Source of the DNA: Octopus vulgaris
Lineage: Eukaryota
Reading direction: 5' to 3'
Assembly: GCA_951406725.2 (NCBI GenBank)
Contig: OX597837.1
Coordinates: 744,001-808,000, forward strand
DNA length: 64,000 bases
This document shows, piece by piece, positions 4,410 to 18,060 of the stretch. Made by a program: the position numbers and the translations under genes. The notes beneath the pieces were generated by a model. The model did no database searches. It saw only the letters and a list, made by a program, of their open reading frames with translations, and was not told the DNA's origin. The stretch's first letter is position 1; each line of letters begins with the position of its first letter.

Positions 4410-5992
4410 CACATGAAGAATTGCATAAAAATATATGCGTGTATAGGCAGACACAGAACTGTACGCATATATTTTGCATTTTTCTGAGTGAATTTGTTTG
4501 TGGTATGTGTGCAAATGTTTGTTTGAAAGCGTGTTAAAATCGTTAATGCGTATGACCAGTTCGAGCATTTGTAAGTTAGTATGTATAACAATGCGTATAT
4601 ATAAAGAGGAAAAGAGTGGCATATGGTTCTAAAGCGTGTTGTGATATTGGATAATGCCGTCAAGACAGATGGAAGTATGAACGGTTGCATACGGGTGCAG
4701 ATGTAAAAGTTTTCTGTGTTTTTAGGTTTGTTATAGCCATCAGGTCTAGCAGCCAAGCTGGAGCACTAAATACGGATCGATCTGGGTCAGTGTCTATACA
4801 TTTTTAAGTGAATCTGATATATATATACGCACACACACACCAGTGCGTAGTATATATGTGAAGGGATGTATATATGTGTATATATGTGTACAGTTGTTGA
4901 TGTATGCACATGTATTTCATGTTTCACTATAAATGCGTAATATTGTTGTACGTATGTTTTTTCAGAATGAGGTCATTCCCCTGTTTTTATCTTTGCGCCT
5001 ATGTTAAGAGTAAATATATCGTAGACATGGCTGTCCTGTTAAAAATTTGCTTCACAACCACGATGCTTCAGGTTCAGTCCCATTGCATGCGACCCAGAGC
5101 AACCGCCTTCTATTATAGCCCCAGGTTGTCCAAAGCGTTGAAGTGGATTTGGTAGATAGAAACTGAAAGGCCATCATTCATGCATATATATGTATGTGTG
5201 TATCGTGTTGCTTTGTTCTGGCTTGCGGCAGAAAAGCCACAGTCTTCATGCAAATAGTGCTGTTCTTTTGCCGTTTCCTTTGAAAATGTGTCCGGTCATC
5301 GAGTAATTTATCTTTCAAAGACTAGAGGTAACATTAATTTGCTTGTAAACAGGTGGATGTTAGCAACAAGACGAGTATCTGGCTGTCAAATAACTGCCTC
5401 AAAAAAATTTCCCTGACCTATGCAAGCACAGAAAAGTGGACATTAAAATGATGATGATGTGATATATGTTAATGTAGCCGATATATTATAAACATAATAT
5501 ACAAAGTATATAAAATATAAAATTTATAAATTATTATTTATTCATTTTTAAAAAAATATTTTTTTTAATTTCAAATTAATAATTTTTTTAATTCTTAAAT
5601 TAAATTTTTTTAAAATTTTTATTTATTTATATATAACTATCAAAAATTATTAAAAAGTTTAATATAAGATAATAAGTAAAACCACTACGTACGTTTCATT
5701 GCCATAACCTAATTCGAATTACAATAATTTAAATTCAATTTTCTAAAGTTCGGTATGTGGTGAAGCAAATTTTTCTTGCTGAACCCTAATTATAATTATA
5801 CTCATAATTTTACCGGAATAGTTCAATACTGAATTTTTATTCCGACTAGGCAATTTGTTACCGAAATGCATTGCGAAAAAGCCCGCCATTTTCATAGATA
5901 TGTAAGGATAAACATTCGTACAAGCTACGACGAATTCTACGGTTAGCTATCGAGTTTGTAATGTTATGTTTTTTCTAATATTTCTTGAGTTT

Positions 5993-6056
5993 GTTGCACT
6001 GACGAACATGAAATGCATATTCTGCATTAAATGCGAAATCACATGTGATATGTAAC
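5993..6056 (+). ncRNA. Type I hammerhead ribozyme (copy 1)
   Basis: Stem I GTTGCA(5993-98)/TGTAAC(6051-56). Core CTGACGA(5999-6005). Stem II aCAT..AATGCA-tattc-TGCATT..ATGc. GAAA(6035-38). Palindromic stem III ATCACATGTGAT. AUA cleavage triplet ending 6050. The stem II closing pair is an A.C mismatch. Confidence 0.8.
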
Positions 6057-6488
6057 TGAGTTCTTTTTTAAAATGATGTGTTTTGAAGTTTTGCATTCGG
6101 TAAAATTTTGTTTATTTTTAGTAGTTTTGACCGCATTGGTCCCTCTTAGCGTGTTGATATCTACGAATAGTAGTACCCTCAATATAATATAAATGAATAT
6201 TTTCAAAGAGGAAGATTTTACGGATTTTTTCTCTTACGAGGTTTTTCACGCTGACTACTGATAATTTCTTTTAAAGATTTTATCCTCAATTGTTAATTTA
6301 TATTTTTCACCGGAATAGTTCAATACTGAATTTTTATTCCGACTAGGCAATTTGTTACCGAAATGCATTGCGAAAAAGCCCGCCATTTTCATAGATATGT
6401 AAGGATAAACATTCGTACACGCTACGACGAATTCTACGGTTGGCTATCGAGTTTGTAATGTTATTTTTTTCTTATATTTCTTGAGTTT

Positions 6489-6552
6489 GTTGCACTGACG
6501 AACATGAAATGCATATTCTGCATTAAATGCGAAATCACATGTGATATGTAAC
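6489..6552 (+). ncRNA. Type I hammerhead ribozyme (copy 2)
   Basis: Identical to copy 1. Core CTGACGA 6495-6501, GAAA 6531-34, predicted cleavage after 6546 (496 nt from the first site). Confidence 0.8.
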
Positions 6553-6801
6553 TGAATTATTTTTTAAAATGATGTGTTTTGAAGTTTTGCATTCGGTAAA
6601 ATTTTGTTTATTTTTAGTAGTTTTGACCGCATTGGTCCCTCTTAGCGTGTTGGTATCTACGAATAGTAGTACCCTCAATATAATATAAATGAATATTTTC
6701 AAAGAGGAAGATTTTACGGATTTTTTCTCTTACGAGGTTTTTCACGCTGACTACTGATAATTTCTTTTAAAGATTTTATCCTCAATTGTTAATTTATATT
6801 T

Positions 6802-7142
<341 letters not shown>

Positions 7143-16729: not shown

Positions 16730-18060
16730 GATGAGAACTGGATGTAAGTCTAGGTCTTAAAGGAGGAACCAGAGAAGAGCTCAGCTGAACAATGTCCATG
16801 GAAATACTTATGGAAGAGAGACAAAGAAGACACACAACCATGATGAGGACGTGAATCCAATTTAGAAGATATATTAGGACCAATAGCATTACAAATACGG
16901 TGTTGAATGCGGTCGAACAGAGTAAAACAATCCACAGGAGCACCTGCCCACATGTGACAATAGTGCTCAATGCAGAGGCGAATTGTGGACTTATAAAGAT
17001 AAAGACTAGTCTCAGGCGTGAGATAACTCTTCAAACGAAGCTGTGGGCCTACCTCCATTGCAGCTGATTTGGAAATAGATTCAATGTAAGTCCTCCAAGA
17101 AAAATCATTACAGAAAGTCTCTCCCAGGGGACGAAGAGAATGTCTGTCAGGTAAGTCAATACCATTCATCGAAATCTATAGCAAAAAAGGATTTCTGAAG
17201 TGATTAATTGAAAGAAGTTTAGTTTTCGATGGATTGAACGTTACAAACCATTTCCTACCCCCACTCAACAAAAGATCGAAGATCATCCTTAAGGTTAGCA
17301 GCGATCTCAACCTTATCAAACAAGTCGTCAGATTTGTCCAAACAAGAGAACAAAGTAGTCATCAGCATAGATTACTAGCTGACAGATGATATGATCAGGC
17401 AGATCATTGATAAAATGAGGAAATAGAGTTTGGCCCAGAAAAGATCCTTGAGGAACCTCAGCATTAATAGAATGACTAGATGAAGATTGACCATCAAGAA
17501 TAACCTTAATCCTATGGTCATAAAGGAAAGAAGAGATGATGTTTAGCATGAAACCTGACATACCAAAGGATTGGAACTTCCATATAAGTCAAACATGCCC
17601 AAACCTATCAGATGCCTTAGAGATATCAAGAGCAACTACCCCAGTATGAACAGATACATTCAAGGCACGATAAAACTGCTCAGATATAACAGTGAGAAGA
17701 TCAGCAGTAGAGCGTCCGGCACGAAAACCATATTGAGAGTCGGAGAATAAACGATTTGAGTCAAGATATTTTACAAGAGAGTCATTAATCAAGCACTGAA
17801 AAACCTTACTGATGATTGGTAGTAGACTAATTGGTCTATAATTACAAGGATTAGATTGATCACCGCAGTTCTTAAAGGCAGGAAAACTGTTGGAAATTTC
17901 TATAAAGAAGGAAAATAAGATTCTGAAATACACTTTCGGAAGAGCCTAGATAAGATAGAAGACAACTCAGGAGAATGTTTCTGAAGAACAATGACGGGAA
18001 TACCATCAGGTCCAGTTGCTTTACATGGACCCAACCGCTGCAACCTTAGCAGAAGTAATA
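16730..18060 (-). pseudogene. CR1/L2/Jockey-group LINE reverse transcriptase pseudogene
   Basis: NYRPISLLPIISKVF, QYGFRAGRSTAD, VALDISKA, VPQGSFLG..LF..FINDLP, YADD and LYKSTIR..EH..H.W are spread over three frames. Confidence 0.95.

Follow-up and report, generated by a model that had tools for sequence, protein, structure and literature searches.

Is the tandem repeat at 5804-6801 of the window (the whole stretch of 64,000 nucleotides of Octopus vulgaris DNA that was analyzed) a retroelement that carries a self-cleaving hammerhead ribozyme, and if so, by which enzyme and from which form of its RNA is it copied into new sites? Among animals, non-LTR retrozymes have been shown in coral, mussel, and axolotl, so the class is already known, including in a mollusc (mussel; PMC7229834). 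In the available text of two sources, the mobilizer of retrozymes and the use of an RNA circle as template are only proposals so far (PMC7229834; 10.64898/2026.07.22.740005). We propose that the octopus unit (referred to as family A) is very probably a non-autonomous hammerhead element mobilized by Penelope-like machinery. This agrees with the initial annotation, which placed the unit among non-autonomous ribozyme retroelements of the retrozyme kind tied to Penelope-like elements, and the agreement comes from copy number, insertion anatomy, and covariation.

The tandem unit and its hammerhead motif

The window sits on a chromosome-scale contig of the 2.8-Gb genome. TRF gives the repeat (5804-6801) a period of 496, 2.0 copies, and 98% matches, with gap-free self-alignment blocks at 5808-5973/6305-6470 and 5969-6268/6465-6764. 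The dimer has a GC content of 31% and its longest ATG frame is 49 aa, in keeping with the original description of two head-to-tail, slightly diverged units devoid of ORFs. An assembly duplication had also been considered at that stage; the two units differ by six substitutions in the compared part and by a 1-nt indel, and therefore they are not a simple duplication of that kind. Both carry an allele that is present in only 5 of 83 insertions. The window insertion is one-armed, L-ended, and 995 bp long, and unit 2 runs into (TA)n as first described. The features are:

5483..5740, minus strand: older AT-rich repeat fragment (family B), carrying the GAAAC-GTAC-GTA half of a hammerhead
5740..5812, plus strand: 3' end of family C, a different repeat that bears a hammerhead; older fragment, by sequence match
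5808..6304, plus strand: unit 1 of family A (497 bp, non-coding), with copies 96-99% identical genome-wide
5858..5870, plus strand: strand of a long-range helix, pairing with 6092-6103 across the monomer and kept with changes in sister families
5993..6056, plus strand: type I hammerhead 1 (sequence and covariation), predicted cut after 6050
6051..6546, plus strand: predicted 496-nt cut-to-cut monomer, a candidate circle (predicted cuts and fold)
6176..6194, plus strand: short (S) 3' end site CCCTCAATATAATAT, internal in the window insertion; second copy at 6672
6282..6304, plus strand: ATCCTCAATTGTTAA, the long (L) 3' end site, present again at 6778, the copy used by the window insertion
6305..6801, plus strand: unit 2 of family A, terminating at the long (L) 3' end (self-alignment, TRF, and end mapping)
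6489..6552, plus strand: type I hammerhead 2, same sequence as hammerhead 1, predicted cut after 6546
6795..7108, no strand: (TA)n target tract (TRF)

The family C fragment matches one locus at 84% (L037) and two others at 82% (L111 and L125). Unit 1 begins at a short word common to this fragment, which suggests that it was joined to the older family C insertion by microhomology. Families B (minus) and C (plus) adjoin both in the window (5483-5812) and at the unrelated locus L037:1425-2797, and in both families short 3' ends are separated from long ones by about 100 nt and the targets are TA. A scan of 15 window frames revealed no host gene; an RVT_1 fragment (E 3e-9) of another retroelement is located at 17592-17945 on the minus strand.

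In hammerhead 1, stem I is formed by 5993-5998 and 6051-6056 (GTTGCA/TGTAAC, six pairs, one of them G-U), the core CTGACGA occupies 5999-6005, and stem III is the palindrome ATCACATGTGAT at 6038-6049; in hammerhead 2, the core starts at 6495 and the palindrome at 6534. Stem II contains three pairs above an A.C mismatch, then an internal loop and a further helix, after which GAAA follows. The AUA sites end at 6050 and 6546, i.e., 496 nt apart, exactly where the cuts had been predicted. The core and the three helices of a full type I hammerhead are thus present in each unit as annotated, but it had been overlooked that the base of stem II (pair 10.1-11.1) is A.C in family A, not G-C. This A.C pair, we assume, may weaken catalysis; a literature search on the 10.1-11.1 pair yielded nothing useful. 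An Rfam hammerhead search of the window, suggested as a check, came back empty both at the gathering score and at E values up to 10. Within family A, substitutions amount to 8.3/kb in the motif vs 16.8/kb elsewhere (131 arms of insertions; permutation p 0.028), position 7 is the sole site inside the motif with two common alleles, and the perfect 12-nt palindrome is found in 125 of 135 motif contexts. Judged from its sequence, the family A motif is conserved and likely self-cutting.

Genomic copies, sister families, and RNA folding

A genome-wide count, also called for by the initial annotation, found 404 exact matches to a 16-mer of stem III on many contigs (control 1) and 703 to a 17-mer of the L end (control 0). 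Two tandem stems III occur at only 32 places, none of them adjacent to another, and 1 of 30 loci with the stem III pattern was outside family A. Family A is a young, dispersed, non-coding mobile repeat of hundreds of copies. Fourteen read sets containing the stretch were taken as RNA by guess, none being recorded as RNA; contigs of four runs presumed to be RNA cover parts of the stretch with no joints, and such contigs cannot show ends, strand, or circles. Transcription by RNA polymerase III is unlikely, since runs of T argue against it and there are six runs of at least five T per unit.

Three sister families are present in the genome, 62-79% identical to family A: A2 with a 481-bp period (62-74% identical), A3 with one locus, and A4 (67-79% identical). 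In an alignment of 11 motifs from the four families (A, A2, A3, and A4), the hammerhead core is invariant, and 6 of the 14 helix pairs have changed on both sides (four in stem I and two in stem II), the four families being related and therefore not independent events. Altogether 92.9% of the cells are paired, compared to 20-44% in slid controls; pair 10.1-11.1 is unpaired in 5 of 11 rows, and so is the outermost stem I pair (5 of 11). An earlier alignment of nine motifs gave the same picture. The core is invariant and stems I and II show compensatory changes in the four families, which indicates that the hammerhead is more than a chance motif; conservation among genomic copies, on which the initial reading depended, is thereby borne out. 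The 10.1-11.1 pair is A.C in A, U.U in A2, G-C in A3, and G-C or G-U in most of A4, so that the four families form a natural series for the base of stem II. Four pairs of stem III are invariant across the four families, and loop III is palindromic in family A only.

A genome pattern for the G10.1 variant had four matches, i.e., three unrelated loci and one sister family. In A2, the extra helix of stem II ends in a GNRA loop, either GTAA or GCAA (loci L214 and L215). At L160 (reverse strand 1-1530), a two-armed repeat with a period of about 547 bp carries a hammerhead-like motif with a 14-nt palindrome, and unrelated hammerhead-like motifs were seen in the flanks of other loci (L032:810, L038 minus 2391, L042 minus 2863, L199, and L203). 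The octopus genome seems to be rich in hammerhead-like families.

The family A monomer folds with a z of -2.1 in linear form and -2.6 as a circle, and single circles lie 2.6-7.3 SD below 25 shuffles. When the monomers of A, A2, and A3 are folded as a circular consensus, stems I and III are present together with long helices in which paired changes occur, the fold being derived from the same alignment on which the paired changes were counted. Taken alone, the motif is not folded more stably than its shuffles (z +0.55), and the active fold lies above the most stable one by 1.4-1.7 kcal/mol in the isolated motif and by about 3 kcal/mol in the circle. Energy by itself does not select the active hammerhead fold. 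Four complementary pairs had been listed across the unit and all exist at their places, but only two of them, 5858/6092 and TAGCGTG/CACGCTG, are part of the fold common to the sister families. CGGAATA/TATTCCG forms a hairpin locally, within sequence that two sister families lack, and CCTCTT/AAGAGG was dropped as it is missing both from the fold of the single sequence and from the shared one.

Insertion anatomy and the RNA template

From 137 hits, 98 unique insertions were kept, chosen not at random but by best score, contig order, and the two-hammerhead pattern; 50 are two-armed and inverted, 46 single-armed, and 2 complex. The 152 arm 3' ends fall into two main groups, 62 ends (S) lying at positions 380-395 of the unit and 76 (L) at 484-3; the two groups are about 105 nt apart and account for 138 of the ends. 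(TA)4 follows within 30 nt after 124 of these 138. A minor third cluster of about eight arms ends at unit positions 345-362, upstream of S. Among the 50 two-armed insertions, 41 combine L with S, 7 L with another end, and 2 S with another end; the same-end pairs L+L and S+S were not found at all (0/50), while free choice would give about half. Likewise, 16 of 18 two-armed A2 insertions pair a short with a long end (hand count).

The arm 5' ends, by contrast to the fixed 3' ends, are scattered (5' truncation). In loci selected by the L end, 20 of 37 arms cross the predicted cut site and none of the 37 stops within 8 nt of it; the linear cut monomer was rejected as template on account of these absent 5' ends. 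The longest arm is 1215 nt and the largest insertion totals 1576 nt, with at most two stems III per arm in all 98 family A insertions. The L end directly adjoins the start of the next unit with no gene between them, the junction being identical in 51 of 67 cases and altered in length in 3, and none of the 98 insertions continues into a coding frame in place of a unit. TA as target, truncation at the 5' side, arms in inverted orientation, and a fixed pair of 3' ends give the family A insertions a Penelope-made look.

Seven two-allele sites divide family A into haplotypes. Within an insertion, alleles agree in 117 of 118 comparisons of tandem copies and in all 119 comparisons of inverted ones, against 53% between loci, and rare alleles are shared at 3.4/kb (tandem) and 2.3/kb (inverted) vs 0.10/kb between loci. 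In A2, the units of two arms with three and four hammerheads are 0-1 mismatch apart, and one of the two arms keeps a locus-specific unit length (484/484/483 vs 481); the A2 arms at L214 and L215 measure 1510 and 2036 bp and consist of near-identical units. Allele sharing within insertions points to one RNA template read past unit length, and together with the conserved junction it implies repeated copying, on both target strands, of a single unit-length sequence. The template is probably a circle, as the simplest explanation of repeated copying of one unit; alleles would likewise be shared if uncut transcripts came from a source locus with units homogenized earlier.

Mobilization and relation to known elements

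Two intact Penelope-like families exist in the genome, with frames of about 1008 aa and 781 aa that contain RVT_1 plus a GIY-YIG domain at the C terminus; both have a cysteine-rich linker and end in (TA)n, and by the description in the available text of PMC8557442 they appear to be Neptune-like. In one of these two autonomous families, a pair of 3' ends is separated by about 40 nt, with a (TA)n target. According to the accessible part of PMC11167929, a purified Penelope-like protein in vitro cleaves the two strands of AT-rich DNA and extends each of them, and it begins within the RNA at two sites that delimit the genomic tail. Cut-and-ligated circles have been proposed as templates for more-than-unit copies (PMC4209133, PMC7229834, in the portions available).

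The reading that we favor, and consider reasonably probable, is that family A is a retrozyme that a Penelope-like reverse transcriptase/GIY-YIG protein, acting in trans, copies from a cut and circularized monomer and puts into TA microsatellites. A locus with two hammerheads would be transcribed on the plus strand, both hammerheads would cut, and the released 496-nt monomer would be ligated into a circle; we infer the cutting and the circle because the fold is conserved and other retrozymes behave in this way. A putative Penelope-type protein would nick the (TA)n target, where the insertions are observed, and reverse transcription would start inside the RNA at the fixed AU-rich sites S and L, which are observed as fixed ends. 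To account for the observed pattern of arms in two-armed insertions, priming would take place at S for one target strand and at L for its partner, with a single RNA serving both, in line with the shared alleles. Copying would then pass the cut site and the unit length and stop at scattered points to produce partial tandems, a minority of which, with two hammerheads, could restart the cycle. More tentatively, and at somewhat less than even chances, a dimeric Penelope-type enzyme may act on one ribozyme-made RNA circle, with S priming one strand, L the other, and copying running round the circle. If true, retrozyme circles would be tied to Penelope enzymes, and the one-sided tail would reflect an obligatory priming asymmetry.

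The most serious alternative, which we nevertheless hold to be unlikely, retains the Penelope-mobilized element and omits the circle: uncut linear transcripts would be copied by re-priming or template jumps within the source, and the hammerhead would be weak, protein-assisted, or serve another step. It gains from the in vitro system, where RNA is used mainly in its uncut form, reads with an end at the cut are absent, and hammerhead mutants did not impair insertion (PMC11167929, available text), as well as from the 10.1-11.1 mismatch in families A and A2; the missing 5'-end pile-up at the cut fits uncut RNA as well as a circle. However, no long source array for family A was found among the 32 two-hammerhead places, i.e., none long enough for the longest insertions, the rare alleles in both units require one unit copied twice, the unit junction is precise, and the helices remain under selection. 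Another source of such units would be the terminal repeats (pLTRs) of an autonomous Penelope-like element from which they became detached. In parts of three sources, pLTRs have hammerheads and an anatomy equally marked by tandems, inverted copies, and tails (PMC8557442, PMC3846280, PMC4209133), and the partner search scored only the best 150 of 6136 and the best 150 of 14818 endonuclease candidates. We regard this origin as very improbable, since the L end leads straight into the next unit and not into a gene, the arms pass two units without leaving the repeat, no insertion enters a coding frame, and the unit has no similarity to the two intact Penelope-like families.

The initial annotation also suggested that the two palindromic stems III of one dimer transcript could activate the cores by pairing. 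The duplex is predicted at -15.8 kcal/mol vs +0.4 for the isolated hairpin in family A, in which the palindrome is nearly always kept, the sister families could form weaker duplexes (predicted -11 to -12 kcal/mol), and dimers help axolotl retrozymes (PMC7229834, in the text available). Yet four stem III pairs never vary, the palindrome of loop III is lost in A2, A3, and A4, and the obligate dimers described in the available text of PMC4209133 have one to two stem III pairs; activity restricted to such dimers is accordingly rather improbable, and we do not retain it. Least credible of all is a DNA-level tandem duplication, satellite, or assembly duplication with a chance hammerhead-like motif, which would agree with the absent Rfam match and the unremarkable fold of the isolated motif (z +0.55); dispersed copies, fixed 3' ends, scattered 5' ends, inverted arms, helix covariation, and the differences between the two units make it extremely improbable.

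In place of these alternatives we retain the Penelope-mobilized retrozyme, and family A, as far as its sequence goes, falls within the sequence-level definition of a metazoan non-LTR retrozyme. It shares with the elements in the available text of PMC7229834 a short tandem unit that is low in GC, has no ORF, and carries one type I hammerhead, the dispersal of monomers and dimers, and the presence of Penelope-like elements in the same genome; axolotl HHR_Amex2 also has a weak base of stem II (U U). It differs in its 497-bp unit (the tested circles are 170-400 nt), in the lack of long arrays, and in that its cleavage and circle are predicted; two fixed ends, one per arm, and shared alleles are not described for metazoan retrozymes in that text. 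In Xenopus, as given in the available part of 10.64898/2026.07.22.740005, 8 of 9 predicted dimers did not cleave and 24 of 57 retrozyme families have TE homology, unlike family A, which has no sequence link to an autonomous terminal repeat in the two families compared.

Like the EN+ Penelope-like elements (Neptune/Poseidon/Naiad) treated in the accessible portions of PMC8557442, PMC3846280, and PMC11167929, family A shows partial tandems, 5' truncation, an adjacent inverted copy, an optional tail between two start sites, and AT-rich or (TA)n targets. Unlike them, it has no coding frame, its tail is about 105 nt instead of 30-40, and its hammerhead has a full 6-bp stem I and a 4-bp stem III in place of a minimal hammerhead. 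With the minimal dimeric Penelope hammerheads in the available text of PMC4209133, it has in common the type I topology and, in family A, the palindromic stem-loop III; it is distinguished from them by four stem III pairs, a palindrome not kept in sister families, a long bipartite stem II, and the lack of the conserved G10.1-C11.1 in A and A2. A search found no paper on a cephalopod element of this kind, with most subscription papers, Repbase, and supplements outside its reach. With its fixed priming sites, one-of-each-end rule, and allele sharing, family A offers a defined 497-nt substrate for the in vitro Penelope assay, and intact candidate Penelope-like enzymes sit in the same genome.

Chimeras between family A and neighboring repeats, considered at two to three loci, were rejected, as TA tracts or other repeats lie between them, and were read as shared targets. 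The Neptune-like family with the frame of about 1008 aa (L156-L179, e.g., G000:C2:59921500-59931500) is very young, with a 6.17-kb unit, copies 98-99% identical, a CA-rich 3' region, and a minimal hammerhead core that is mostly CCGACGA, not CTGACGA. At L172 and L184-L186 (G000:C6:67114149-67126577), an A2 end fragment occurs three times about 6.1 kb apart around Neptune-like copies, which suggests tandem duplication of the Neptune unit with flanking DNA. The second Neptune-like family (L290-L298), with the 781-aa frame, has a 40-nt optional tail, and its hammerhead core is TTGATAA, the U3-A8 variant described in the available text of PMC4209133.
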